Counted from the first letter of the stretch, positions 7,051 through 41,624 are shown. The stretch is 50,682 bases of DNA from Promethearchaeota archaeon (GCA_016839585.1 JAEOTZ010000059.1:1-50682), one strand, 5' to 3'. Numbers and translations: made by a program. Notes: generated from the sequence alone by a model not told the origin.

Positions 7051-8910
7051 GTGATGAATGAAAATAAATTTGATTTAAAGACACTAAAAATAGATTATGA
7101 TTCCATTTTTAAGAAAATTCCTACTCCTACTTATCTTTGGCAAAAAAGAGATCAAGATTTAATTCTAATTGATTACAATAATGCTGCTAAAGAGATCACT
7201 GATGGTAAAATAATTAATTATTTGGGGACTAAAGCTTCAGAACTATATGAAAACCAACCTAAGATACTAAAAGACCTATACTTGTGCCTTAATGAGCAAA
7301 AACCTATTTCTAGAGAAATAAATTATCATTATCAATCTACAGGAAGAAATAAAGAACTCTCTGTAATTTATAATTTTATTCCACCAAATTTAGTACTAGT
7401 TCATACAAAAGATATTACTGAACAAAAAAAAGCAGAACAAGAATTACGAGAAAATGAAATACGTTATCGTTCCATTGTAGAAAATTCTCATGATGGAATT
7501 CTTATCGTAAATGAAAATTATCAATTCACTTATGTAAATAATCAGTTATGTAAAATCTTAGATTACTCTTATGATGAGATTATTGGTCAAGATTTTCGAA
7601 ATTTCCTAGATGATGAGAGTAAAAAACTTGTAGCAGATCGTTATGTTCGTAGACAAAGAGGGGAAAAAGTACCAGCCAGATATGAGTTTAATGTTGTTAG
7701 GAAAAATGGTGAAAAAAGACGTGTTGAGATAATTTCTACAGTAACAACAGAGTTGAAGGGAGGAATAAAAACCATAGCTCAAATCTTGGATATTACGGAG
7801 CGTGAAAAAATTGAAAAAAAATTTCGGAAAATATTTGAAGATTCACCCTTTTCTATAGTTCTGGTTAATTTAAAAGGAAAAATCATTGATTGCAATCCAG
7901 CAACATTAAAATATAGTGGATATGAAAAGGAGGATTTAGTTGGTAAAAATTTTAGAGATCTTAAATTGTTTCATCCAAAATCTTTTCCTCCCCTTCAAGA
8001 GACTTTTAATCAATTACTAAAGGGAGATAAGCCTAATGATTTTGATATTCAAATGTATAAAAAAAATGGAGACTTAGTCTGGATAAATTTACAAGCTTCA
8101 CGAGTCAAGTTAAAAAGTGAAACCTTTTTTCAAGTTATAATACATAATATTACAAAACAAAAACAAGCAGATCTTCTTATAAGAGAGCAGATTAGAAAAT
8201 TAGAAGTTTTAAATCAAATCCAAAAGGAATTTATAACTAGAGCGTCCCACGAATTAAAAACTCCTTTAATGTCAATAAGTGGTGCTAGCGAACTTTTAAT
8301 TGATAATTACAATGATAAATTAGATAAGAATGCTTTGGAAATGCTTGGAATGATACAAAGAAATAATGAACGATTAATATATCTTGCTAATAATCTTCTT
8401 GATATTACTCGTATAGATTATAATAAACTCACATTGAATAAACAACCACATAATATATGTGATATAATTAGAGAGATATCAAACGAAATGAACCTTTTTT
8501 TAAAAAAACGTAAAATCAATTTAATAATGAATCTCCCTAAAACTGTAGTATTAAATATAGATAAAATAAGATTCGAACAAGTAATAACAAATTTGATTTC
8601 AAATGCAATTAAAAATACACCTATTAATGCTAACATTGAAATTATGGTAAAACATAAAGGAGAAACCATTATTATATCTATAAGTGATACAGGAATAGGC
8701 TTAACTAAAGATGAAATTAGTAAATTATTTACCAAATTTGGTAAAATAGAAAGATATGGAGAAGGCTTAGAATTTCTTAATATTCAAGGTTCTGGTCTTG
8801 GATTATATTTAACAAAAGAAATTATAGACTTACATGAGGGAACCATTAGTGTAGAATCTGCTGGAAGAAATATGGGAGCAAATTTTATAATTGAATTACC
8901 ATTAAAGTAA
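7051..8910 (+). CDS. Cytoplasmic PAS-domain sensor histidine kinase (3 PAS + HisKA + HATPase)
   Basis: PAS/PAC repeats ending DITE; H-box SHELKTPL; N-box NLISNAIK; G boxes DTGIG and GSGLGL; no TM segment. Confidence 0.93.
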   Translation: MMNENKFDLKTLKIDYDSIFKKIPTPTYLWQKRDQDLILIDYNNAAKEITDGKIINYLGTKASELYENQPKILKDLYLCLNEQKPISREINYHYQSTGRNKELSVIYNFIPPNLVLVHTKDITEQKKAEQELRENEIRYRSIVENSHDGILIVNENYQFTYVNNQLCKILDYSYDEIIGQDFRNFLDDESKKLVADRYVRRQRGEKVPARYEFNVVRKNGEKRRVEIISTVTTELKGGIKTIAQILDITEREKIEKKFRKIFEDSPFSIVLVNLKGKIIDCNPATLKYSGYEKEDLVGKNFRDLKLFHPKSFPPLQETFNQLLKGDKPNDFDIQMYKKNGDLVWINLQASRVKLKSETFFQVIIHNITKQKQADLLIREQIRKLEVLNQIQKEFITRASHELKTPLMSISGASELLIDNYNDKLDKNALEMLGMIQRNNERLIYLANNLLDITRIDYNKLTLNKQPHNICDIIREISNEMNLFLKKRKINLIMNLPKTVVLNIDKIRFEQVITNLISNAIKNTPINANIEIMVKHKGETIIISISDTGIGLTKDEISKLFTKFGKIERYGEGLEFLNIQGSGLGLYLTKEIIDLHEGTISVESAGRNMGANFIIELPLK

Positions 8911-8967: not shown

Positions 8968-10809
8968 TTATTCTTTTAATAACCATTGATCTGTGATAAG
9001 AAAGCTCTCCATAATTAGCTCTTTGAGAACAGGATTTTCTTTCAGCTGAACAGTTTGAAAGTTTTTTAAGAACTTGTTAAAAATTTGCCATATAGTAGAT
9101 TTTCTTTCCATATGGTCTGTAAAATACCCCAATTTTTGTTTTGCGAAATACGATTGCCCTTTAAATAAATAACAAACTAAAAAGTTCCCTACAGGATATA
9201 TAAGGATAGTATGGTTTCCAAATTTAGCACGATCCAAACCTTCAGAAAAAACTTCTTTACTAATTGAATCGAATGAAGTTAAAAAACCACTGAGGAGATC
9301 ATCTGAAAAGTCCCAATCTTTAGAAAATGTGTGAGAAAATGCTGGTATACCCCCTTCAGACATAACTAAAAGTAATAAGGGTTCCTCATCGGATAATTTT
9401 GGGATGTCTACTGTGCGTTTTTGTATCATTCTTTTCATTTCGTCTTCTATTTGGGTTAACGTCAATCTTTCACCTATTGGCGAATCTGATTTTTTTAATT
9501 TCTCCCACAAATCCATTTGTTTTAATAGTTCGTCATGTTCATTTGAAATTTTCATAGATAATCGATTAAGTCCGTATTTTTCGGCTATATGTTGAGCTTC
9601 AGATAATAATTGTCTAGCATTTTTAATATTAAAAGTAAGTAATGCAAGTCTGGCTTGTAAGAGTTTCGTTTCAGTAATTAAGGGATATGAGTTGTTTTTT
9701 TCAGCAATATCCAACAGACGAGAAAAATAGGGTTGCATTTCTTTTAATATCTCAAGATCGTTAGTATTACGTAGATCAGTTAAGAGCAAATCACAGAGAT
9801 TGAGCAAAGCATCAATATGAGCTTCGTATAAAACAACATCCTCCTCTACTGCTTTTCTCAATATCTTTTCAGCCTCAGAAAGATTACTAGCACGAGGATT
9901 TGCTTTCAATAATAAAGCTTTATTAATTAAATAGTCTAATTTGATAATTTCATATTCTTCTTGATCTTTAAGTTCCTTCATTTGATCTAAGTAATTTTGT
10001 GCTAACTTAAGATCACCTTTATCAAGGGCTATATGAAAAAGTGAATCGAGGATTATATGGATTTTAGGACTATTTATCTCCTTACAAAGAGCATAACTCT
10101 GATTTATACTTTCAAAAGCATCATCTAATTTACCTTGCATTCTATATACCCACCCTAAATTATTGAGAGCTATAATAATGTTCTGTTTATCATTTATTTC
10201 TTTAGCAACAGCTAATGCCTGGCTATGATATTTGATTGCAAGGTCTATATTACCTTTTATTCCATAGTAAGTACCTGTATTAAGTGTAAATTGCATTATT
10301 AATTTTTTATCATTTATTAGTTTAACAAGTTCTAAACCTTCTTCCAAGCATTTTTTAATAAGCTCTAAATTCCCTCTGGCAAAAAATATTCCTCCTTTTA
10401 TTAAGTACAAAGAGGCATGTTTTTTCTGAATTTCTGCGATAGGTTCTGGAAATTGGGCACTGATTATTTCTTCAGCTTTACCAATCTCGTCAAGAGCTTC
10501 TTCTAATTTACCAAGTCGCCAATAAACCCAAGCGATGAGATTTAAAGCATCAATTGATTTGTCATAACTCTTTAATTTTTTACTCTGCTCTAAAACTCTT
10601 TCTGCAAGGTTTTGTGCGTCTTTTAATTGTCCAAGAGCTAATAATAAAGAACTTTTAAGAATGTGTAAAGATAGTAAATCTTCTTCAGTAAAATCTTCTT
10701 CTTTTTCTAAATTAACTACGATTTGAAGAGCTTCTTCAAACTTATCAGCATTTTTGAGTTCTTCTGCTTGCTTTAATTCTTTTGATTTTAACTTAAGCAT
10801 AAAGTTCAA
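8968..10809 (-). CDS. TPR-repeat protein with a C-terminal longin-like domain
   Basis: TPR repeats (ALNNLGWVYRMQGKLDDA and similar); C-terminal ~135 aa with LLVMSEGGIP.FSHTF...LLSGFL...SKEV. Confidence 0.8.
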   Translation of the reverse strand: MNFMLKLKSKELKQAEELKNADKFEEALQIVVNLEKEEDFTEEDLLSLHILKSSLLLALGQLKDAQNLAERVLEQSKKLKSYDKSIDALNLIAWVYWRLGKLEEALDEIGKAEEIISAQFPEPIAEIQKKHASLYLIKGGIFFARGNLELIKKCLEEGLELVKLINDKKLIMQFTLNTGTYYGIKGNIDLAIKYHSQALAVAKEINDKQNIIIALNNLGWVYRMQGKLDDAFESINQSYALCKEINSPKIHIILDSLFHIALDKGDLKLAQNYLDQMKELKDQEEYEIIKLDYLINKALLLKANPRASNLSEAEKILRKAVEEDVVLYEAHIDALLNLCDLLLTDLRNTNDLEILKEMQPYFSRLLDIAEKNNSYPLITETKLLQARLALLTFNIKNARQLLSEAQHIAEKYGLNRLSMKISNEHDELLKQMDLWEKLKKSDSPIGERLTLTQIEDEMKRMIQKRTVDIPKLSDEEPLLLLVMSEGGIPAFSHTFSKDWDFSDDLLSGFLTSFDSISKEVFSEGLDRAKFGNHTILIYPVGNFLVCYLFKGQSYFAKQKLGYFTDHMERKSTIWQIFNKFLKNFQTVQLKENPVLKELIMESFLITDQWLLKE

Positions 10810-10874: not shown

Positions 10875-11414
10875 TTATTTATATTTATTATATAATATAT
10901 CAATGATTGCGTTAAATGCGTTTATGACTCCTTGTCCAGTTTTTGCAGAGGTTATATAATATCCAATAAAATTTTGCTTGTCCACAATTTCTTGGATTTC
11001 AGAATGATCTATACTATTCTCATCAATTAAATCAATTTTGTTAGCGAACATAACTACTGGAATATTTTCGCAAAATTGATTAATATCTGAATACCAATCA
11101 GGAATATGAGCAAAACTATCTTTACCAAGGTCATTTTCTTCTAAACTATACACGATTATGGCTGCTACACTATTTTTAAAAAAAGAAGGACGTAAAAAAT
11201 TGAAAGTATCCTGACCAGCTATATCCCAGAATAATAACCTAATTTTATTTCCCTCAATCTCCTTGTCATATACAGAGAATTGGGCTCCTATAGTCTTGAT
11301 ATAATCCTCCTGAAAAGAACCTTTTGTAAACTTTTGTATTAAGGATGTTTTCCCTACTTGCCCATCTCCTATAACTGTAATCTTAAATCGGAACTTCTCT
11401 ACTGTTTCATTCAT
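10875..11414 (-). CDS. Rab-like small GTPase (Ras superfamily)
   Basis: G1 GDGQVGKT, G2 KTIG, G3 WDIAGQ, G4 NKID, G5 SAK; no C-terminal prenylation Cys. Confidence 0.95.
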   Translation of the reverse strand: MNETVEKFRFKITVIGDGQVGKTSLIQKFTKGSFQEDYIKTIGAQFSVYDKEIEGNKIRLLFWDIAGQDTFNFLRPSFFKNSVAAIIVYSLEENDLGKDSFAHIPDWYSDINQFCENIPVVMFANKIDLIDENSIDHSEIQEIVDKQNFIGYYITSAKTGQGVINAFNAIIDILYNKYK

Positions 11415-11558
11415 TTAATGAAATTGTTGATATATATATACTATTAAACAAATCTTGATTAATGTAAGATTTAATTTTTCTTTATATAAAATTTTAATTT
11501 ATTGCATTAGAAATCAATAAAATAAAAAATGAAAAAAATAAAAAATAAAAACAAATAA

Positions 11559-11756
11559 TTATTCCTTTTTAATCAATTTAGACAAATAATGCCACATCTT
11601 ACCATTACTTCCATAAGAATATGTTGATATTTTAATAATAGCTTTCCTTGAATTTTCTTTTGCATTATTATTGAATCTAAAATCAGATAAATTGTCTAAA
11701 ATTACTTCCTTATTTTGTTTTAAATCGGGGATTACTATTCTCTTACTCTCTGTCAG
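11559..11756 (-). CDS. Putative 65-aa small protein with a CTG start (not in the ORF track)
   Basis: GGAGGTGG SD-like motif, then GTTAAAT-CTG, then 65 open codons (LTESKRIVIPDLKQ...HYLSKLIKKE) to TAA; starts 24 bp downstream of the 138-aa ORF on the same strand. Confidence 0.55.
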   Translation of the reverse strand: MTESKRIVIPDLKQNKEVILDNLSDFRFNNNAKENSRKAIIKISTYSYGSNGKMWHYLSKLIKKE

Positions 11757-11780
11757 ATTTAACCACCTCCTTTAATATTA

Positions 11781-12197
11781 TTAAATAATTGTTTTTAATC
11801 CTTGAAAGAATTTTTCAGGAGAAATTCCATACAATAACGCTTTATGAAGTAACTGTAGCTTTATTTCAGCAGCACTAAAAGAATTTTCTCTATACTTTGA
11901 TTTTTCTTTTAATTCCTTTAGGATTATATATAGTATATACTCAGGTTTCTTATATTTACCAAAATATCCACCAAAAGCAGTGAAAAGATTTACCATCAAC
12001 TCAATATCATTTGTAGAAAATTTTTTCAAACATGATTCGCAGATAACTCTTGTATAAACTCCTGAATGGTAGATTGAAGCCCTATTTTTAATTTCGGCAC
12101 TACAAATACCACAATTCATCGAGCTATTAATTACATTAGGTTTTTTCCCAATAATTTGTGCCATTTTATATATCCACCACCTTTTAAATTTACTCAT
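11781..12197 (-). CDS. Hypothetical Zn-finger protein (CxxC...CxxC); probable real start is ATG 12164
   Basis: CGIC-x17-CESC, followed by a FGGYFG motif; GGTGGTGG precedes ATG 12164. Confidence 0.75.
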   Translation of the reverse strand: MSKFKRWWIYKMAQIIGKKPNVINSSMNCGICSAEIKNRASIYHSGVYTRVICESCLKKFSTNDIELMVNLFTAFGGYFGKYKKPEYILYIILKELKEKSKYRENSFSAAEIKLQLLHKALLYGISPEKFFQGLKTII

Positions 12198-12421
12198 AGG
12201 TCTTTAAATCCAAATTTAAATTTCTCAGGATGTAAATAATAATAATCAAGAGACTTTTTCCATCTTTTCAGTGCTCTACTCTTATCTATTATATCCAAAT
12301 CATCTGGGATTGTATAGATTTGACTAAGCTGATTTATCGAATCTCTCTTAATTTCATCTCTCTTAGTTTCAGATAAGAGTTCTTCAAATTCATATGATAT
12401 TTGTTTCTTAACTTCTGTCAG
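12194..12421 (-). CDS. Putative 75-aa small protein with a CTG start (not in the ORF track)
   Basis: GGGGTA-GTTAAAT-CTG, then 75 open codons (LTEVKKQISYEF...YYYLHPEKFKFGFKDL) to TGA, abutting the next gene. Confidence 0.6.
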   Translation of the reverse strand: MTEVKKQISYEFEELLSETKRDEIKRDSINQLSQIYTIPDDLDIIDKSRALKRWKKSLDYYYLHPEKFKFGFKDL

Positions 12422-12498
12422 ATTTAACTACCCCTTTTTTATTTCAAATTTTTGATATATTTATAAACATTAATTTTTCTATTTCGTAATTTTAATGT

Positions 12499-12543
12499 GG
12501 AGAGCTCAAATTGTTATTCAGAATATGAACAATTGAGCTCTCC
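12499..12543. promoter_or_regulatory. 16-bp-stem inverted repeat (1-nt bulge) upstream of the small-gene operon
   Basis: GGAGAGCTCA-A-ATTGTT ... AACAAT-TGAGCTCTCC. Confidence 0.5.
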
Positions 12544-12692
12544 TTTAACTAAGCCCTCTATTCTCTCTCTGAATTACCTTTCTATATAGTTGACAAATAA
12601 ATTTTACAAGTTCAGTATAATTTGTATCAGTATTTTTTTATTTTTCCGTTTATTTATTAATATTTATTAGATCAGAGTTTAATATATAGTTT

Positions 12693-12725
12693 TTCTCCAA
12701 AAACTCCAATTGGAGTCTTGGAGAA
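12693..12725. promoter_or_regulatory. Compound palindromic operator candidate
   Basis: TTCTCCAA-AA-ACTCCAATTGGAGT-C-TTGGAGAA: perfect 14-bp core palindrome plus 8-bp outer arms, between divergent genes. Confidence 0.6.
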
Positions 12726-12770
12726 GTCTCTGGATAGAAACATTTTTATAGATTCTTATACTATTTTTAA

Positions 12771-14774
12771 TTGAGAACTTCTAATTATTATGAAAAATAC
12801 TGGAAGATTATCTTGGAAAATACAATCAATTATCCCCCGAATGAACTTTTGGAACCTCCTTCCAAGTTGAGTAAACCTAATTTTAAATTAGTAATTCTTT
12901 GGATGTTAAATAACAACGAATTATGTACAAGTTCAGACTTTCTCGCAATTGAAAATTCTGAATCTGATACAGTATTTTCAAAATCAACATTATATAATTA
13001 TTTGAAAACTCTTATTGAAGAAGGTTATGTCAATAAAAGTACTTATAATAAATACCAGATTACTCCTAAAGGCAAAGATAGATTTTATGAATTATCTCAA
13101 GCGAAGTTTGCACGAAGAAAATTAAGTTATCCTCCTAAAGCAATCACGATCAAGAGGAACTATGACCACTGGATTCTATGGATGGTGTATAATAATAATC
13201 ATTGTAAATGGGCGGATTTCCTTGCACAACCTCTTTCTATTAATCAATCCTCATTATCAAAAAATATGAATTCATTAATCAATGATGGACTTGTAAGAAA
13301 AGAAAACAAAGAATATAGGATTACCCAGCTAGGTAAATCGACCTATTCTAATATGTTAAGAGAGTATGATTTAGATAGACAGTCAATTTTAGAAGCAGAA
13401 AGTAAACGAATTAGGGAGATAACTAAAAAGACTAAAAAATTCTTTGAGAAATTTAAACCAAAAGATAATAATATTAAGTTCCGATATCTCAATAATGTTT
13501 TAAAATTACCTTATGAAAATGAAAAGATTAAATCTACTTTAGATATAGAAGAAGATTTTAACAAAGTTTTACTTTTTCTTTCAATGAATCATCCAAATGA
13601 ATTTCCTCATTATACTTCTCCAGAAGATTTTTCTGAAAAATATGCTATTAGCCTTATTAAACTTAATTTTACAATTCTCCGTATTGTTGAAGAAGACATT
13701 TATCCTGTAAAGTTTTTTAAATTGGAAGTAGAGAAAGATAAAAATTATTTCTTTCAAGCAAATGAGAAATTAGAGAGAATGTTTAATGCTATTGTTGAGG
13801 AACATATTGCTAAGTTCACATATTTGCATAATTTATATGAAGAATATCCAGATGACACTCCTCCATTAACCTTGGAATTTACAGTTGAAGCCATTTTAGA
13901 TGAGATTTGTGGTAATTTATTTTCCAATGGATTAAGAAATGCTTTAAGGAAGTTTTTACCAGATTATATTCATTACTTAGCATATAAAATTGAAAAAGAG
14001 AAAAAACTAATAGATACATATGATAAATTGGAAGGATTAATTTGGCAAGAGATCCAGGCATATAATTTTAATAATCAACAAGTAGACTTTAGTGAGCAAA
14101 AAGGAGCCAACTATGATGAGGCTCTTAAAGAGATTGATAAAGCCATTAAATTGAAACCCAAAGACATTGATCTATATTATTCAAAAAGCAAAATCCTTAT
14201 TAATCAAAATCGATACAGAGAGGTATTAACTTTATTAGAAAAAATGCTAAAAGATTTTCCTCAAGAAGAGAAGAATATTCAAATAAAAAGGGCATATATT
14301 CTTAAAGAAATGAGAAGTACTGAAGCAGGTTTAGAGATTATTGAAAAAATGATTGAAAAATATCCAGAAGATAATGATCTTCTTAATTATAAAGCCTGTT
14401 GGTTACAATATCTAAATAAAAAAGAAGAATCTTTAGAAGTTATTCAAAAGCTTATAAAACGTGTGCCTGATAATGCTACTTATCATGATACCTACGGTGA
14501 AATTCTAATGTTCTTTAATGAACATGAGCATGCTATAGAAGAATTTCTAAAAACAATAGAGATAGGCAGTAAAAATTGGTATGCTTATCAGACGTACATT
14601 AAATTGGGGATTTGTTATAAAGAACTAGGAAATTATAAGTTAGCAGTTGAATATCTTAAGAAAGGAAAAGAATTAACAAATAAAACTCTTATTGATCCTG
14701 ATACAAAACGAAAATGGGTTGTGATCGCGGACCTTTTCCTTGCAGAGATTGATCAACTTGAAGCTGAGTTCTAA
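12771..14774 (+). CDS. Tandem winged-helix plus C-terminal TPR protein (putative transcription regulator)
   Basis: Internally duplicated unit ILWM..NN..C...DFL...S.L...L..LI..G.V.K...Y.IT..G (two copies); TPR repeats in the last ~230 aa. Confidence 0.8.
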   Translation: MRTSNYYEKYWKIILENTINYPPNELLEPPSKLSKPNFKLVILWMLNNNELCTSSDFLAIENSESDTVFSKSTLYNYLKTLIEEGYVNKSTYNKYQITPKGKDRFYELSQAKFARRKLSYPPKAITIKRNYDHWILWMVYNNNHCKWADFLAQPLSINQSSLSKNMNSLINDGLVRKENKEYRITQLGKSTYSNMLREYDLDRQSILEAESKRIREITKKTKKFFEKFKPKDNNIKFRYLNNVLKLPYENEKIKSTLDIEEDFNKVLLFLSMNHPNEFPHYTSPEDFSEKYAISLIKLNFTILRIVEEDIYPVKFFKLEVEKDKNYFFQANEKLERMFNAIVEEHIAKFTYLHNLYEEYPDDTPPLTLEFTVEAILDEICGNLFSNGLRNALRKFLPDYIHYLAYKIEKEKKLIDTYDKLEGLIWQEIQAYNFNNQQVDFSEQKGANYDEALKEIDKAIKLKPKDIDLYYSKSKILINQNRYREVLTLLEKMLKDFPQEEKNIQIKRAYILKEMRSTEAGLEIIEKMIEKYPEDNDLLNYKACWLQYLNKKEESLEVIQKLIKRVPDNATYHDTYGEILMFFNEHEHAIEEFLKTIEIGSKNWYAYQTYIKLGICYKELGNYKLAVEYLKKGKELTNKTLIDPDTKRKWVVIADLFLAEIDQLEAEF

Positions 14775-14868: not shown

Positions 14869-16029
14869 ATGAATTCAAGAGAAAGAGTAAATACAACCTT
14901 AAATCATAAAGAACCAGATAAGGTACCTATTGATTTAGGAGGGCATCAATCTGGAATTCACATAAAAGCATATAAAAGGTTGTTAGATTTTCTGGAAATT
15001 AATGATAATAATATTCAGTATTGTGATTTTGTACAACAAATCGCATTACCATGTGAAGAATTATTAGAAAGGTTTAATATTGATATTAGATATGTTCGTC
15101 CCTTAGGTGGGATGATAAATGTAAATGATGTCCATCCACAATATGAAGGAAAATACGTAGGAGTATATGATCAATTTGGTTGTTTTTGGGGAAATGACGC
15201 AAAGAAAGATTTAGATGAAATTTTATATTATGATCCAGTTATACATCCATTTGCTGATTTTAAAACCATTCAAGAAATTGAAAATTATGATTGGCCGAAT
15301 GGAAATGATAAAACCCCCTTTAAAGGATTAAGGGATTATGCGAAAAAGTTACGCATAACCACCGATTTTGCTTTATCTACTCCCCCTACAGGATGTATTT
15401 ACGAGTATACAACTTTTCTTTTTGGTTTTACAAGAGCATTAAGAAATTTACAGACAAAACCAGAATTGATTATCGCTGCAATGGAAAGTCTTTTAAAATA
15501 CTGGATAGATTATAATGTAACTTTTTTAAATGAAGTCGGTGAATATTTAGATGTTGTGTGTATTAATGGAGATTTGGGTGAACAAGCAGGTCCAATTATG
15601 AATTTAAAAATATATGAGAAAGTAATAAAACCAATTGAGAAAAAGCTTTCTGAAAAAATACATGAACTAGCAGATGTTAAGATCAATTACCACTGTTGTG
15701 GTTCTACTCCACTATTTATCCCTCATTGGGCAGGAATTGGGTATGATATTTATAATCCTGTTCAAATCTCCGCTTATGACATGGAACCTTGTAGTTTAAA
15801 AAGAAGGTTTGGTGAAATAATTACATTTTGGGGAGGTTTGTGTAATACGCAACAAACACTTCCATTTGGTATTCCTAAGCAAATTCGGGAAGAAGTTAAG
15901 AGAAATATTGATTGTTTTAAACCTAACGGAGGTTTCATTGCGGCAAATATTCATAATATAACAGCAGAGGTTCCTCCACAAAATATTGTTGCTATGTTTG
16001 ATGCTGCAAATGAATTTCGTAATTATTGA
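14869..16029 (+). CDS. Uroporphyrinogen decarboxylase / MtaA-CmuA family protein
   Basis: MNSRERV...HKEPDKVPIDLGG, GDLG, YHCCG, NPVQ, GGFI...HNI. Confidence 0.88.
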   Translation: MNSRERVNTTLNHKEPDKVPIDLGGHQSGIHIKAYKRLLDFLEINDNNIQYCDFVQQIALPCEELLERFNIDIRYVRPLGGMINVNDVHPQYEGKYVGVYDQFGCFWGNDAKKDLDEILYYDPVIHPFADFKTIQEIENYDWPNGNDKTPFKGLRDYAKKLRITTDFALSTPPTGCIYEYTTFLFGFTRALRNLQTKPELIIAAMESLLKYWIDYNVTFLNEVGEYLDVVCINGDLGEQAGPIMNLKIYEKVIKPIEKKLSEKIHELADVKINYHCCGSTPLFIPHWAGIGYDIYNPVQISAYDMEPCSLKRRFGEIITFWGGLCNTQQTLPFGIPKQIREEVKRNIDCFKPNGGFIAANIHNITAEVPPQNIVAMFDAANEFRNY

Positions 16030-16053
16030 GTAAAATTAAAATTATAAACTAAC

Positions 16054-17103
16054 ATGAAAATGAACTCATTAGAATTAACTTTATCAGCAATTAAGGAAAT
16101 ACCAGAAAAGATCCCCTTTAATCCTTTTATCATGCATCTTGCTGCTTCTTTATTAAATGTAGATTATAATCACGAATATTGTCAGAATCCAGAGGTATTA
16201 GCAAATTCAATGATAAGGTGTTCTGAATTCTTTGGAATAGATCATGTTAATGTATCTACAGATGCTTACCGTGAAGCGAATGCATGGGGTGTTGAAATTG
16301 ATTGGAAAAGCCACACACCTGTTGCCAAAACTCATTTAAAAATTAAGGAATTTGAATCTATTGAAACACCGGAGTTATTACAAAATAGAAGAATTAGAAA
16401 TAGAGTTGAGGCTGTAAAATTACTCTCAGGCAAAGTAGGAGGCAAACAATGCATTGTTGGTTGGATTGAGGCTCCATTTGCAGAAATATGTTGTCTATTT
16501 GGTTTAATAAATATACTTAAATTGTGTAAGCATTCTGACTGGGAAAAAAGAATAAAAAAACTTATCGAAAGAATTCTTCCAATCCAAAAAGAATTTGCTA
16601 GACTACAGATTGAAGCGGGAGCAGACATAATTGGAGCAGGAGATTCTGCAATTTCTCAAATAGGTCCTATGAGATATGAAAAATGTTGTTTAGAAACATC
16701 AACGGAATTATTTAATTATATTCAAAAAGATGTGCCTGTCTTATATCATATCTGTGGAGATAACTCCGTAATCGACAAAGAAGGGAGGGATATGCTAAAG
16801 CTAGTTTCAAAGACAAATGCTGCAATTTTAGATTTGGATTATCAAGTTGATTTGAAACTTGCGAAAGAAAAAATAGGAAAAAGTAATTGTATTAGAGGAA
16901 ATACTAATACTCAAGTTTTAGGCAGTGAAACATATTCAGTTATGAATGTTTATAATGAGATAAAAAACACCATTGAAATAGGAAAGCCAGGTGGGATGTA
17001 TCAATATGCAGCAGGGTGCGAATGGCCCTGGCAACCACTTACAATGGCAAGTCGAAATTTAGGAATTGCTAAAGCATTAATCGAAAAATTGGGGCGATAT
17101 TGA
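16054..17103 (+). CDS. MtaA/CmuA-like (URO-D fold) methyltransferase
   Basis: EA.AWG, GWIEAPF, AGADIIGAGD, and Zn ligands in YHICG and AAGCE. Confidence 0.85.
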   Translation: MKMNSLELTLSAIKEIPEKIPFNPFIMHLAASLLNVDYNHEYCQNPEVLANSMIRCSEFFGIDHVNVSTDAYREANAWGVEIDWKSHTPVAKTHLKIKEFESIETPELLQNRRIRNRVEAVKLLSGKVGGKQCIVGWIEAPFAEICCLFGLINILKLCKHSDWEKRIKKLIERILPIQKEFARLQIEAGADIIGAGDSAISQIGPMRYEKCCLETSTELFNYIQKDVPVLYHICGDNSVIDKEGRDMLKLVSKTNAAILDLDYQVDLKLAKEKIGKSNCIRGNTNTQVLGSETYSVMNVYNEIKNTIEIGKPGGMYQYAAGCEWPWQPLTMASRNLGIAKALIEKLGRY

Positions 17104-17131
17104 ACAGTAGTATTACATAAAAAAAATTATT

Positions 17132-18190
17132 TTAATCAGGAATATTTATTGGATAATTGCTATATTTTCTTCTTATATTTTGCATTGCTTCAAACCGATC
17201 TAGCGTTACCGCTGGATGAATGCTATGACCAGATCCAAAAATATATCCCCCTCCAGGTGCTAATTCCCTAATTAATCTCTTTGCATATTCCTCAATTTCA
17301 GATATATCTCCTAATGCTAACATCACAGGGTTTAAATTACCAGAAAATGTTATCTTATCTCCGAATTTATTATTCAATTTGAAGATATCATACTCTGGAT
17401 TCGCTGTAGTAGGTTCGAGAGGATTAACAACATCAACACCACAGTTAATTATATCTTCAAAAATTTCAGATAAATCTCCGTCAGAATGTAATAATATTTT
17501 ACAATCACGTTTATGAGCAGCATCACATATTCTTTTTAACCAAGGAAATACATACTTCTTATAATTTCTAGGAGGCATGAAAAGACCACATTTAAAACCA
17601 TAATCATCCCATAATAATATAACTTTTGCATCATTTTCAGCTAGCAATTTTACAAGCTCGAGAGTAAATGTTCCATAATCATCAAAGATTTGTTTAATTT
17701 GCTTTGGATTAGTTAACATTCTTGAAAATGTTTCTATTCCGAAGCCTTCCCAGTTATTTTCAAAAATACTTCCTGTTGCAGGAATAGAAAATACTTCATC
17801 TTTAAGTTTCTTTTGAACATCTCTCCCTAGTAAAAATTGGTTTAATCTCACTTCAGAATAAGGATCTGGTTTTTCCCAACTTTCATAGTCATCAAATGAC
17901 TCAAAAGATCCACCATGATATGCTAATATCATCGTTCCATCTTTATAATATTCAGTTTTCATGATTCTTCCATATTCATCAATATATCCGCCTTTCATAG
18001 ACTTTCGAGGAAAAACACTTACATAACTTAAAACTAAATCTATTTGAGCTCTACGGAAAAAATCATAAGTTACATAATAACCACGACCTTTAGTTGGATC
18101 AACTCCATAATGTCTCATAATTGTATAATTCGTAAATGCACTTTCAAAAGCCGGAACTCTATCTGGTTCCTCGTGATTAATAGCTTTCAA
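17132..18190 (-). CDS. Uroporphyrinogen decarboxylase family protein (probable start is ATA 18211)
   Basis: HEEPDRVP, DEYGR, DDYG, LHSDG, NPLEP, GGYIFGSGHSI. Confidence 0.87.
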   Translation of the reverse strand: MKAINHEEPDRVPAFESAFTNYTIMRHYGVDPTKGRGYYVTYDFFRRAQIDLVLSYVSVFPRKSMKGGYIDEYGRIMKTEYYKDGTMILAYHGGSFESFDDYESWEKPDPYSEVRLNQFLLGRDVQKKLKDEVFSIPATGSIFENNWEGFGIETFSRMLTNPKQIKQIFDDYGTFTLELVKLLAENDAKVILLWDDYGFKCGLFMPPRNYKKYVFPWLKRICDAAHKRDCKILLHSDGDLSEIFEDIINCGVDVVNPLEPTTANPEYDIFKLNNKFGDKITFSGNLNPVMLALGDISEIEEYAKRLIRELAPGGGYIFGSGHSIHPAVTLDRFEAMQNIRRKYSNYPINIPD

Positions 18191-38406: not shown

Positions 38407-39063
38407 CTAAATTTTTAATGTTCTATTTTCTAATATTTCTACCTTAATAGTGGGATCTTTCTTTTCGAGAAGTTCCTTAAACTCATTTAAATCTTTTCCC
38501 CAATTGTGCATGGGAACAACAATTTCTGGTTTAATATCTAATGCTACTTCAATAGCTTCTTCAAAATCCATAGTGTAAATTCCCCCACATGGTAATAAAG
38601 CAACAGTTATGTTCCTTTTTGCTAGATCTTTCATTTCAGGTATTCTTCCCGTATCTCCAGCATGATAAACACTTTTACCACCTGATTCAATTATTGTACC
38701 AGCCCATTCATTGCTTTTAGGATGTGTATTCTTTTTTATTGTATAAGCTGGAAATAATTCGATAGATAAATCTTTATAATCAAAAGAATCCCCAATTCTT
38801 AATGGTTGACCATTGAATTGTTTCAAACTACTAGCAATACTCGCAGGACCTAATAAAACAGTGTCTTCTCTCATTAACTTTTTAATGCTACTTGAATCAA
38901 AATGATCTCCGTGAGTATGTGATGTTACGATTATATCTGCTTTTTCAGCTCCTTTAGGAATATCATACGGATCTAGATAAATAATTCTTCCACTAAAGAG
39001 TTTAATCTTGAATGCTGCTTGTCCAAACCATTCTATTTCCATTTGTGTTTCCAATTGTTCCAC
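38407..39063 (-). CDS. MBL-fold metallo-hydrolase, paralog 2
   Basis: YLDPY, SHTHGDH, YHAGDT, VPMHNW; tandem duplicate of paralog 1. Confidence 0.9.
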   Translation of the reverse strand: MEQLETQMEIEWFGQAAFKIKLFSGRIIYLDPYDIPKGAEKADIIVTSHTHGDHFDSSSIKKLMREDTVLLGPASIASSLKQFNGQPLRIGDSFDYKDLSIELFPAYTIKKNTHPKSNEWAGTIIESGGKSVYHAGDTGRIPEMKDLAKRNITVALLPCGGIYTMDFEEAIEVALDIKPEIVVPMHNWGKDLNEFKELLEKKDPTIKVEILENRTLKI

Positions 39064-39182
39064 CTCTTTAAATTTTATTTATTAAATAAGCTATAAATTA
39101 TATTTATGATTTAAAGTTATTTAACTATAACTTGATATATAACTATCTAAAATTAATAAGTAAAGTATAAGAAAATAATTAA

Positions 39183-39560
39183 TTATTCTTCTTTTTCAAA
39201 TTTCCACTTAGGGCTTTCGAGTGGTGTCTTTTTAATAATCCCAAATTTATCAAATTTGGTTAAATCCAATTCGCTTAAACGCTCTAAAAGCATTTTATTT
39301 TTGAAGTGAGGAATTTCACTAATTAAATTTGGTTTTGAAATCAAATTTATCAGATTTGAATTATTATTAACCTTTTGAGGTAATATCTCTTTTAAAATTT
39401 CCTTATTATCACTATAATTTTTTCGAAATAAAGGATTTTCAATTTTTAAAAAAGGATTATCATTTGTATCAAGAAAATTTTTTGGTAATGTAGATCTAAT
39501 AATTCGACAAGTAGGGCAGTTTGTCTCATCTAAACCGTGAATACAAATCAATTCTCTCAT
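39183..39560 (-). CDS. Hypothetical protein with an N-terminal CxH-x6-CxxC motif
   Basis: CIHGLDETNCPTC. Confidence 0.65.
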   Translation of the reverse strand: MRELICIHGLDETNCPTCRIIRSTLPKNFLDTNDNPFLKIENPLFRKNYSDNKEILKEILPQKVNNNSNLINLISKPNLISEIPHFKNKMLLERLSELDLTKFDKFGIIKKTPLESPKWKFEKEE

Positions 39561-39854
39561 TCTCTGTTATTTAATTTAATTCTGAGTAATTCAAATTAAT
39601 TTTATCTTATATTTTTTGTTATTATAAAAATGAATAGTCTTTTCGTATTAAAATTTCTATCAATTTTAAAGTTAGTATCATTCTTTTATCATTAATAATA
39701 TTTTTTTTGTATTTACTTTCTTAGAAGATGAGGTATAATTGATTTTTTGAAAAATTTTTAAATTTAAAGGAATTACTTTTTATATCCAAAATTACTAATT
39801 AAAATTCACAAGCTAAGTAAAATATATTAATAAAAATAAACAAGTTGTAAAAAA

Positions 39855-41624
39855 ATGGCAGAATGGCAAGTAAATGAAGATAAAACTTGGTTTAAGAAGT
39901 GGTGGCCTAAAGATACTCCTAAAAATTATAATTTTGAAAAAATATCATTAGGAGATTTTTTTGAAAGGCAACGAAAGAAGTATGCTAATGAACCTATGAT
40001 GTGGTTTTTAGAATCGTGGATGACATATGAAGAGGCTGGTAAGGCGATCGATTCCTTAGGGACTGCACTCCATAATTTAGGAATAAAAAAAGGAGATGTA
40101 GTAGCATTTCTAATGCCAAATAGTTTTCAATATGTAATCTGTTTTTATGCAACCGTAAAAATTGGTGCTATTGCTACTGGAATAAATCCAACCTACAAAC
40201 CATTAGAAGTATTGCACCATCTTAAATTGACAAACGCAAAAGTTTTAATCACTTTAGATGCATTATATGGTGAATTAGCACGCCCAATAATTAATAAAAC
40301 AAATGTTGAAATAGTTATATATACTAATGTTGCAGATTTAGCTTCTGGAATACCAGGTTGGAAAAAAGGTTTAGGAAAAATGATTGGAAAAATACCAAAG
40401 GGAAAAGTTGATTTTCCTGGGTCTATCAAATTCTTAGATTTGGTCATAACTAAACCTGATCCACCAAAGGTAGAATTTGATCCAACTATACATCCAGCAA
40501 CATATATTATGACTGGTGGAACAACAGGAGTTCCTAAGGCAACGATTTTAACACATCTCAACGTAGTTTCAAATGCAATTCAATGTGTATTATGGGTTGG
40601 TGGGGAAGACCCTGGTGTTGGAGATATTGGTGCATTACCATTGTTCCATTCATTTGCAATGACTGCAGTTATGAATGTAGCAATTGGTTTAGGAGGATGG
40701 ATGATGTTATTTCCAAGACCACCTCCTACTGACGTATTTCTAAAAGAAATTACTCACATACCTGCTCCTAAAGGATTATTTTATGCTGGAGCAGAAATTC
40801 TATTTAAAAGAATTGCTGACTTTCCAAATCTTGAAAAATTTCCGGGTTTAATGGGGCGATTAAGACTTTGTATCTCAGGAGCAGGACCATTACATGCTCC
40901 TGTACAGCAATCATTTCAAAAAAATACTGGTGGAAGAATTGTTGAGGGGTATGGTTTGTCAGAAGCATCCCCTGTCGTTAGTGGTGGAAATTTATTTGGA
41001 GAAAGTCCAATAGGTGTTATTGGAATGCCATTTCCAGGCACTGATTGGGGGATCTTTGATGTCGATAATTTTGAAAAAGGACCAATAGCAGATGGATTGC
41101 AAGGTTCAAAATATGGAGAAGAAAATACAGGTGAACTATGTGTATGTGGTCCTCAAGTTATGAAAGGATATCTAAATCAACCTGAAGAAACAGCAGAAAC
41201 TTTAAAAACATGGGATGGTAGAACATGGCTTCTTACTGGTGATATCGGTTTTATGAATGAAGATGGAACAGTAGCTCTTAGGGACAGGAAAAAGCAATTA
41301 ATTAAAGTAGCGGGTCATTCAGTCTTTCCGGCTGAAGTTGAAACGATGTTAATGAGTAATGAAGCAGTATCAGAAGCTGCTGTAGCTGGTCTACCTGACC
41401 CCGCAGGAAAAGTTGGTGAAATAACAAAAGCGTGGGTTGCGTTAAAACCAGAATATAAAGGTAAAATCACTGAAGAACAATTAATAGCTTGGACTGAAAA
41501 GAATATGACCAAGTGGAAATGTCCTACTATTATTGAATTTATTGAAGAAGTTCCGAAAAATATTATGGGAAAAGTTCAAAGACGCACATTACAAGAAGCA
41601 GATCCACTATTTAAAAAAAAGTAA
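39855..41624 (+). CDS. Long-chain fatty acid--CoA ligase (AMP-binding family)
   Basis: TGGTTGVPK, LPLFHSFA, EGYGLSE, TGDIG, DRKK, PKN.MGKV. Confidence 0.92.
   Translation: MAEWQVNEDKTWFKKWWPKDTPKNYNFEKISLGDFFERQRKKYANEPMMWFLESWMTYEEAGKAIDSLGTALHNLGIKKGDVVAFLMPNSFQYVICFYATVKIGAIATGINPTYKPLEVLHHLKLTNAKVLITLDALYGELARPIINKTNVEIVIYTNVADLASGIPGWKKGLGKMIGKIPKGKVDFPGSIKFLDLVITKPDPPKVEFDPTIHPATYIMTGGTTGVPKATILTHLNVVSNAIQCVLWVGGEDPGVGDIGALPLFHSFAMTAVMNVAIGLGGWMMLFPRPPPTDVFLKEITHIPAPKGLFYAGAEILFKRIADFPNLEKFPGLMGRLRLCISGAGPLHAPVQQSFQKNTGGRIVEGYGLSEASPVVSGGNLFGESPIGVIGMPFPGTDWGIFDVDNFEKGPIADGLQGSKYGEENTGELCVCGPQVMKGYLNQPEETAETLKTWDGRTWLLTGDIGFMNEDGTVALRDRKKQLIKVAGHSVFPAEVETMLMSNEAVSEAAVAGLPDPAGKVGEITKAWVALKPEYKGKITEEQLIAWTEKNMTKWKCPTIIEFIEEVPKNIMGKVQRRTLQEADPLFKKK

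Follow-up and report, generated by a model that had tools for sequence, protein, structure and literature searches.

What does a large winged-helix protein control when its gene lies back to back with three very small genes? The question is raised by a stretch of 50,682 nucleotides from a Promethearchaeota archaeon (GCA_016839585.1, JAEOTZ010000059.1:1-50682), hereafter the window, which is contig C48 of a 3.45-Mb Asgard-type genome (G000; 99% complete, ~29% GC). Between positions 11,559 and 14,774 it holds the gene for a protein with tandem winged helices and tetratricopeptide repeats (TPRs), here called REG, and, on the opposite strand, a conserved leader element followed by the small open reading frames (ORFs) orfA, Zn and orfC; a Ras-like small GTPase gene lies beyond them (Table 1). 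Asgard archaea carry many eukaryote-like small GTPases without assigned partners or functions, and in a 2024 survey of these GTPases the genome layout of the cultured MK-D1 gave few clues linking them to regulators (PMC10933270). The module described here is a compact and conserved candidate set, comprising one GTPase clade, a probable DNA-binding TPR protein with a candidate operator, and two to three families of small proteins.

The explanation that we favour, as the most likely one though with little more than even confidence, is an autoregulated transcription factor controlling a divergent small-protein and GTPase unit. REG would act as a transcription factor, each chain of which has two winged-helix units for binding DNA and, C-terminally, a TPR domain for sensing or interaction. 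The TATA box nearest to REG (TATA2) would drive its expression; immediately upstream lies a palindromic operator candidate with half-sites of the TCCA/TGGA type, and a second box (TATA1), on the far side of this operator, most likely directs transcription leftwards. Bound probably as a dimer to the four half-sites, REG would regulate its own gene together with the leftward unit. The leftward transcript would begin with a structured leader (a purine-rich motif and a hairpin), continue through orfA, Zn and orfC, and end at the T5-T7 tracts at 11515-11556; translation of orfA, and here also of orfC, would begin at CTG or TTG, a weak, conserved codon preceded by a strong ribosome-binding site. Because of this conserved weak start and the structured leader, the output of small proteins is probably also controlled post-transcriptionally. 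With orfA as the core and Zn and orfC as accessories, the small proteins and the Ras-like GTPase would be the outputs of the module, its feedback partners, or both. The locus appears to be one copy of a lineage-specific module that belongs to a family of Loki-type (Promethearchaeota) Asgard archaea.

Here, we report a family of small proteins whose start codon is mostly CTG, a structured RNA without a counterpart in Rfam, and a double-TATA/operator cassette of rigid geometry that lends itself to in vitro assays of archaeal transcription; further additions are the orfA/Zn/orfC version of the module, the strand and position of its leader, and a probable correction to the start of REG. The evidence is comparative genomics throughout, and the lineage is apparently uncultured.

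Table 1. Features of the module and its neighbours, in window coordinates.
Feature	Position	Strand	Description
REG	12771..14774	+	tandem winged helices, helical middle part and TPRs; 667 amino acids (aa) from TTG 12771, probably 653 aa from TTG 12813
Two winged-helix units of REG (aa 38-111, 131-196)	12882..13358	+	from Pfam, AlphaFold2 and ortholog alignment
C-terminal TPR domain of REG (aa 448-666)	14112..14768	+	~6 repeats; from Pfam, AlphaFold2 and structure search
TATA2, predicted REG promoter	12743..12751	+	TTTTTATAG; most orthologs read ATAAAG-TATAAATAG; the block ATAGA is invariant across 17 orthologs
Compound palindrome, candidate operator	12694..12724	.	four half-sites of CTCCAA/TTGGAG type
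TATA1	12682..12689	.	second TATA-like box, ATATATAG; [CT]ATAAATAGTTT in orthologs
Conserved leader element	12494..12584	-	91 nt; purine-rich motif GAGAGAA..GAGGGC, then hairpin 12499-12543
orfA	12194..12421	-	75 aa, CTG start; N-terminus M-T-E-S/V-K; C-terminal motif D.IDKKR..KRWK.S.GYY.L.PEKF.FG.KDL
Zn	11781..12197	-	CxxC..CxxC zinc-ribbon and helical protein; 138 aa, or 127 aa from ATG 12164
orfC	11559..11756	-	65 aa, CTG start; Shine-Dalgarno motif, start and N-terminus MTESK as in orfA; C-terminal motif IIKISTYSYGSNG..WHY
T5-T7 runs	11515..11556	-	immediately beyond the stop of orfC; probably the archaeal terminator for the small ORFs (function predicted)
Ras/Rab-like small GTPase gene	10875..11414	-	Pfam Ras 2e-40, Roc 2e-29
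TPR protein	8968..10809	-	613 aa, downstream of the GTPase gene; Pfam TPR_12 and TPR_MalT matches

The probable regulator and its control region

The domain composition of REG points to a DNA-binding protein. In Pfam, winged-helix families matched two segments (aa 40-107 and 134-196), and the TPR matches covered aa 447-637; HTH_45 (28.9 bits, cut-off 25.5) and HTH_27 (23.7 bits, cut-off 22.2) scored above their cut-offs, while HTH_34, PadR, MarR, TrmB and ArsR remained below theirs. HTH_3/XRE was absent from the Pfam matches, the helix-turn-helix (HTH) matches being to winged-helix families only. NCBIfam returned the archaeal DNA-binding families Sso10a, Lrs14 and Sta1, all below their curated cut-offs, and a PHROG search also gave winged-helix and TPR matches. 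Alignment of one winged-helix unit with the other shows an internal duplication (34% identity, E 4e-11). An AlphaFold2 model based on 46 homologs (mean predicted local distance difference test, pLDDT, of 80) shows winged helices at aa 38-111 and 131-196, each with the order helix-helix-helix-strand-strand, followed by a long helix, a helical middle part (203-409) that includes a winged-helix-like helix/strand segment, a disordered linker (411-445) and six TPR-like hairpins (448-666). A Foldseek search with the whole model returned only TPR proteins and nothing matching the middle domain. Because families of archaeal DNA-binding winged helices match both units and the AlphaFold2 model is confident, REG is likely to bind DNA. 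Most of these archaeal matches fall below curated cut-offs, and REG is for that reason classed by its sequence as a separate family, seen only in Promethearchaeota-type metagenome-assembled genomes: more than 1000 relatives are found in databases, all from such genomes and named as hypothetical or TPR proteins.

The sequence-only reading, an earlier interpretation of this DNA, had described a 667-aa regulator with two duplicated winged-helix units and C-terminal TPRs, divergent from three co-oriented small ORFs, each behind a motif of the Shine-Dalgarno (SD) type, with a compound palindrome between them. All of these elements were recovered, in an arrangement well outside what chance would produce, with two amendments: the start of orfA and orfC is read as CTG, and that of REG is probably TTG 12813. 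The later start is preferred on three counts: in the closest ortholog (G029), a TAA closes the frame ahead of the TTG that corresponds to 12813; the orthologs in databases measure 650-654 aa; and the conserved TATA box at 12743-12751 lies only ~20 nt ahead of TTG 12771. Orthologs within the genus share 59-88% identity, and the family is expanded there, with up to 17 matches per genome. Among 19 orthologs, the recognition helix of the second unit, INQSSLSKN, is invariant; that of the first unit falls into two classes, which track the operator variants only loosely. A correlation between the helix classes and the operator variants was considered and set aside, as it is only partial and the independent clades are too few. 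In one sediment metatranscriptome, contigs match REG at >=99% identity over 12812-13113, which is weak evidence of expression, as DNA carry-over is possible; 5% of words were present in this data set and, besides this part of REG, only a divergent piece of the GTPase gene.

The palindrome reads CTCCAA-AAA-CTCCAA followed directly by TTGGAG-TC-TTGGAG (12695-12723). The window has a single copy, where 0 are expected, and the 3.45-Mb genome has no second one at <=3 mismatches; next to the TATA boxes of the REG paralogs in this genome, the palindromes are different ones. With the REG TATA box as anchor, the control regions of 17 orthologs from 17 species align without gaps at 71% column identity and present the same cassette: a TTAGATCA-like block, TATA1, a spacer of ~12 nt, the operator core, a further TGGAT, and TATA2. 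The operator core, (A/G)(G/C)TCCA-N4-GGAGTCTTGGA, keeps a fixed spacing, and the distance between TATA1 and TATA2 is fixed at 61 nt. Archaeal promoter geometry suggests that TATA2 is the promoter of REG, and TATA1 is probably the leftward promoter. Since the palindrome lies between two TATA-like boxes within a rigid and conserved cassette, it is the predicted operator both for autoregulation and for divergent control; the arrangement is consistent with a back-to-back promoter pair sharing one operator that would be read by REG. No ORF of 12-60 codons with an SD motif is conserved in 19 orthologous intergenic regions. In some species, unrelated acidic ORFs of ~80-95 aa are found between TATA1 and the leader (L009 in G022, L017 in G010, and L096-L099 in the sister genus), so the leftward unit seems to take up different small genes in different lineages.

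The probable leader element and the small genes

The intergenic region also contains a hairpin (GGAGAGCTCAA...TTGAGCTCTCC), as the sequence-only reading had noted; a role as part of a DNA operator is not supported, since the hairpin belongs to a conserved element on the strand of the small ORFs. The hairpin occurs once in the genome, is conserved at orthologous loci and follows the purine-rich motif at a distance of ~10-20 nt. Folded as the minus strand, the 91-nt element has a minimum free energy of -24.3 kcal/mol (z = -3.4). Several hairpin pairs that are G.U pairs on the minus strand become A.C mismatches on the plus strand, and the minus-strand fold is the more stable one in 17 of 18 distinct homologs (sum of -423 versus -372 kcal/mol). 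When 19 sequences are aligned in minus orientation, 96.6% of cells are paired versus 39-54% with slid partners, and 13 cells are changed on both sides, a count reached by none of 500 shuffles. The lower stem, GGAGAGCUC/GAGCUCUCC, is invariant; the upper stem changes in sequence and keeps its pairing. A covariance model of the element (R1) matched 20/40 and 8/41 genomes of two genera, with 1-2 copies each and exclusively at module loci, and gave no match in the other genera sampled. In 25 of 25 loci where the hairpin was re-located, it shares the strand of orfA or the GTPase gene and lies upstream of that gene; the distance is 37-80 nt to the start of orfA or, where a GTPase gene precedes orfA, 200-450 nt to that GTPase gene. 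Rfam returned no match in the whole window at gathering thresholds; with E up to 10, the only matches in 12380-12800 were of miRNA type, at chance level and well short of gathering.

Because of the G.U and energy asymmetry, the covariation and the constant position upstream on the orfA strand, the hairpin is best read as part of a leader, or as an orfA-proximal RNA element of the leftward unit, rather than as an operator. It could instead act in the DNA, as an inverted-repeat operator ahead of an orfA promoter, or form the terminator of a small RNA gene of its own, on one or the other strand; we find this reading doubtful. It would account for a lower stem, GGAGAGCTC, that is invariant rather than covarying, as expected for sequence-specific recognition, for the TATA-like box between hairpin and orfA in several species (e.g. 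TTTATAAA at 12460-12467), for the U-run that follows the hairpin on the minus strand in some species, and for the 200-450 nt that separate the element from the GTPase start in ten loci. However, it does not fit an upper stem whose pairing outlasts changes in its sequence, nor G.U pairs that are formed on the orfA strand only and whose counterparts on the opposite strand, or in a duplex read by a protein, would be A.C mismatches; moreover, in the genome studied here, the stretch from the hairpin to orfA has no T-run. The hairpin was also tried as a small RNA read from the plus strand, its tail rich in C, and this was dropped after the G.U and energy asymmetry and the synteny had been considered.

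Downstream of this predicted leader, Zn is the only one of the three small ORFs with a canonical start: its upstream ATG shares bases with the stop of orfA (ATGA), and the other ATG, at 12164, stands behind an SD-like AGGTGGTGGAT. The frames of orfA and orfC have no ATG, GTG or TTG at their 5' ends. Their starts lie within a common 33-nt direct repeat (82% identity), in which an SD-like GGAGGTGG or GGGGTAG is followed by TTAAAT and then CTG ACA GA; SD-like motifs thus precede all three ORFs (GGGGTAG, AGGTGGTGGAT and GGAGGTGG). The 15-mer GTTAAATCTGACAGA occurs twice in the window versus 0.21 expected. The repeat is explained by the start region that orfA and orfC have in common and not as an insertion scar; Zn as a recent insertion flanked by the repeat was rejected, as orfA-Zn pairs are present in the sister genus. 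Across 29 loci of two genera, the orfA start codon is CTG in 19, TTG in nine and ATG in one, always 7-8 nt after a GAGGTG-type motif, and the codons that follow (T-E-S-K) vary synonymously among homologs. Several automatic gene calls in databases begin upstream and read the SD motif as 'RW' before the L codon, the pattern expected of gene callers that refuse CTG. A weak start codon thus appears to be the rule in the orfA family, and comparison across loci suggests initiation at CTG.

Selection on these frames was assessed by the ratio of nonsynonymous to synonymous rates (dN/dS), computed among the three closest species. It is 0.26-0.35 for orfA (0.84 against G098), 0.23-0.30 for Zn and 0.20-0.30 for orfC, with 0.06-0.15 for the GTPase gene. 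In view of the low dN/dS, the synonymous variation in the conserved N-terminus and the SD spacing, orfA, Zn and orfC are, as far as sequence comparison goes, real genes under purifying selection. It would follow from a chance neighbourhood, with small ORFs unrelated to REG and untranslated CTG frames, that orfA and orfC lack both a canonical start in this genome and a family annotation. Such a chance arrangement, already disfavoured, is very improbable nonetheless: besides the purifying selection and the synonymous changes in the conserved MTESK stretch, 10 of the 29 loci have TTG or ATG in place of the CTG, and the linkage survives several rearrangements in two genera.

The products are small (65-138 aa) and hydrophilic, with the N-terminus MTESKK and no hydrophobic signal-like segment, in agreement with the earlier statement that signal peptides are lacking. 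The orfA family is narrow: a profile search yielded 47 representative clusters among 1.84 billion proteins, all of 38-104 aa, and the conserved motif is always at the C-terminus. AlphaFold2 models only the C-terminal 30 residues of orfA with confidence, as short helices, the N-terminal half reaching a pLDDT of 54-58. Pfam, NCBIfam and PHROGs gave nothing beyond chance-level zinc-finger matches for orfA, orfC and Zn; in the ESM Atlas, orfA had no usable match and Zn matched only unnamed Promethearchaeota clusters. Most genomes of the genus also encode homologs of Zn (38-49% identity) at sites other than the REG locus. In the genome studied here, a paralog of 125 aa (44% identity, G000:C47:3954-4331) lies directly upstream of radA, and a RadA/KaiC-like ATPase gene also adjoins in this region (G000:C47:2610-5599).

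The linked GTPase and the layout in two genera

The sequence-only reading regarded the locus as a self-contained switch, which is contradicted by the GTPase gene: it adjoins the REG ortholog in 19 of 19 fetched loci (L005-L023), divergently in 18 and downstream in one. Members of the orfA family are found in 35/40 sampled genomes of the genus and in 27/41 of the sister genus, and were not found in most other genera of the host family; orfC is rarer than orfA in the same sample. Sixty loci were mapped, and three layouts recur. The first, REG, then leader-orfA-Zn-(orfC)-GTPase on the other strand, is that of the window, its close relatives and most sister-genus loci; in the second, the divergent unit is leader-orfA-orfC-GTPase, and in the third it is leader-GTPase-orfA, the GTPase gene standing between the control region and orfA in many species. 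As the first layout recurs in close relatives and in most sister-genus loci, it is, judged by this distribution, ancestral with the GTPase included and not a local accident; its recurrence with a Ras-like GTPase in two genera likewise means that the module is not self-contained. Synteny across orthologs and paralogs, which the sequence-only reading had proposed as a check, agrees with the remainder of its layout: in both genera, orfA-family ORFs nearby, a palindrome and the hairpin are kept.

The constancy of the GTPase raises the question of which protein acts as the switch. In a GTPase-centred, conservon-like arrangement, which overlaps with the explanation favoured here, the Ras-like GTPase would be the switch and REG its effector or scaffold: the TPR or middle domain of REG would dock the GTP-bound form, the neighbouring TPR protein would serve as GTPase-activating protein or guanine nucleotide exchange factor, the small proteins would be accessories of the GTPase cycle, and transcription would be no more than an output. 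This is possible, if on the unlikely side. It draws on the adjacency of the GTPase gene to REG, mostly divergent, at every fetched locus, on ~10 loci in which orfA lies directly downstream of the GTPase gene and behind the same leader, on the TPR protein that follows the GTPase (its longin-like tail being an unconfirmed label), and on a PAS histidine kinase gene that converges on the GTPase/TPR-protein pair. In the window, however, signals resembling a promoter and a terminator set the GTPase gene apart from the small-ORF unit: ahead of the gene, the T5-T7 runs are followed by a TATA-like TTTTATATAAAG, which suggests that the gene has a promoter of its own. Furthermore, one of the three REG paralogs in the genome has no GTPase match nearby, and Pfam detects no component of the DUF742/CvnC type.

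A small protein might instead bind the TPR domain of REG as ligand or anti-regulator, in an intracellular switch resembling the RRNPP systems. Many TPR domains read C-terminal peptides, and the best candidate would be orfA, with its motif ending in ...KDL(K)-COOH. It is the small gene most constantly linked to REG, and its motif, always C-terminal, lies in the only 30 residues that are confidently modelled, as expected for a docking motif. One member of the family, P0139 (104 aa), has a 50-aa N-terminal extension with weak winged-helix similarity of the MarR/LexA type (E 0.02-0.08) and may represent a natural protein in which a DNA-binding head is fused to the C-motif of orfA, although this N-terminus scores below all Pfam cut-offs. 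Set against this idea, which we hold to be unlikely, are the mapped loci, where orfA is operonic with the GTPase gene as often as it is linked to REG, and the interruption of orfA in one species (G098) that retains an intact REG; no protein of >=166 aa carrying the orfA motif was found, so fused forms of that size were not seen, which is weak evidence. A complex prediction for full-length REG with orfA, both entered as alignments, gave a score of 0.00 against a mark of 0.32; as the fold of orfA is uncertain, this is neither support nor counter-evidence.

Several observations weigh against an autoregulated factor with a divergent, CTG-initiated small-protein unit. The sequence of the control region is also compatible with TATA1 as a second promoter of REG. 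In the sister genus, the TATA1-operator block is kept and the TATA box of REG lies ~95 nt away from it, which makes autoregulation less obvious there and ties the operator more closely to TATA1. Initiation at CTG is rare in archaea, and here it is deduced from comparative data only; the 3' end of 16S rRNA, which carries the anti-SD sequence, was not found in the assembly. In the single RNA run compared with the locus, neither the leader nor the small ORFs are covered by a contig, a gap that is uninformative. Finally, the orfA ortholog of G098 (L048, G098:C52 1501-1725) carries an in-frame TAA (QLS*IYT), so orfA is dispensable at least there. In that genome, Zn, orfC, the GTPase gene and REG are intact, and the stop in orfA represents either a pseudogene or a sequencing error. 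We nevertheless retain the autoregulated factor with its divergent unit as the preferred explanation. A more specific form of it, in which the GTPase and the CUG-start small proteins behind the structured leader set the activity of a dimeric, four-winged-helix TPR transcription factor, is considered improbable at present. If true, it would amount to a switch that couples a GTPase to transcription among the prokaryotes most closely related to eukaryotes, a new kind of archaeal signal-transduction unit, and one Asgard GTPase clade would gain a concrete partner and output.

Relation to known systems and neighbouring genes

Which known systems does the module resemble? The RRNPP cassettes of Bacillota and their phages include Rgg/SHP, PlcR/PapR, NprR/NprX, PrgX and AimR/AimP. 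Like them, the module combines a cytoplasmic DNA-binding head with C-terminal TPRs, adjacent genes for small proteins and a palindromic operator candidate in a common control region. Unlike them, REG has tandem winged helices instead of an XRE-type HTH, together with a 200-aa middle domain; the small proteins are 65-127 aa long, hydrophilic and without export signal; a GTPase is included; and the host is an archaeon. No sequence relationship was seen in a homology comparison made by Pfam only. The kinship with regulators of this type suggested by the sequence-only reading is thus not upheld, both for the class of HTH and for the absence of an export signal.

Actinobacterial conservons (CvnA-D) and the MglA/MglB-type small-GTPase systems of prokaryotes likewise combine a Ras-superfamily GTPase with an HTH-type protein and, here too, a sensor kinase gene is nearby. 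The Ras/MglA-type GTPase characteristic of CvnD is present (Pfam Ras 2e-40, Roc 2e-29). The counterpart of the roadblock/longin-type partner would be the 613-aa protein encoded downstream of the GTPase gene, for which Pfam and NCBIfam gave solely TPR matches; its roadblock/longin-like tail is a label from an earlier reader and is unconfirmed. In the maps of the 60 loci, this TPR protein recurs beside the GTPase in several cases. Pfam found no DUF742 (CvnC) in REG or the small proteins, and in place of a membrane-bound CvnA the neighbouring kinase is a soluble PAS protein encoded convergently. In contrast to conservons, the DNA-binding protein of the module is a large, divergently encoded winged-helix and TPR protein with its own candidate operator, and the CTG-initiated small proteins and RNA leader have no conservon counterpart. 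The module is therefore neither an RRNPP system nor a conservon, and it shares some logic with each: a TPR regulator beside genes for small proteins in the one case, a small GTPase together with an HTH protein in the other.

Two further comparisons concern its parts. The winged-helix units of REG match the families of archaeal regulators and chromatin proteins (Lrs14, Sta1, Sso10a, TrmB, PadR/MarR-like), and a palindrome next to the TFB recognition element (BRE) and TATA box is the usual archaeal mode of autoregulation, but REG differs in having two winged helices in one chain, a long helical region and TPRs. Autoregulatory starts at non-AUG codons exist, such as the AUU of bacterial infC. As in that case, a good ribosome-binding site precedes a weak start codon that is kept across species, suggesting control at the level of translation; the codon of the module, however, is CUG (or UUG), and it belongs to an archaeal family of small proteins. 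Literature searches found no paper describing the module, in keeping with the earlier statement that no characterised system is known to have such a layout, and we regard it as a so far undescribed variant of a regulator with a divergent operon, whose functions are those predicted above.

The genes on either side of the module were also surveyed. The histidine kinase mentioned above is a soluble double-PAS protein (window 7051-8910), convergent with the TPR-protein/GTPase pair, and no response regulator was seen in its vicinity. A tRNA/tmRNA search of the window gave no match. The GC content reaches its minimum (22%) at 39000-40000, where the cumulative GC skew turns; the flanking gene encodes an AMP-binding enzyme and not orc1/cdc6, so there is no sign of a replication origin. 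Directly 3' of REG (14869-18190) lie three genes of the uroporphyrinogen decarboxylase family (URO-D/MtaA-like), two on the plus and one on the minus strand; the first of them keeps its place beside REG only in the closest relative.

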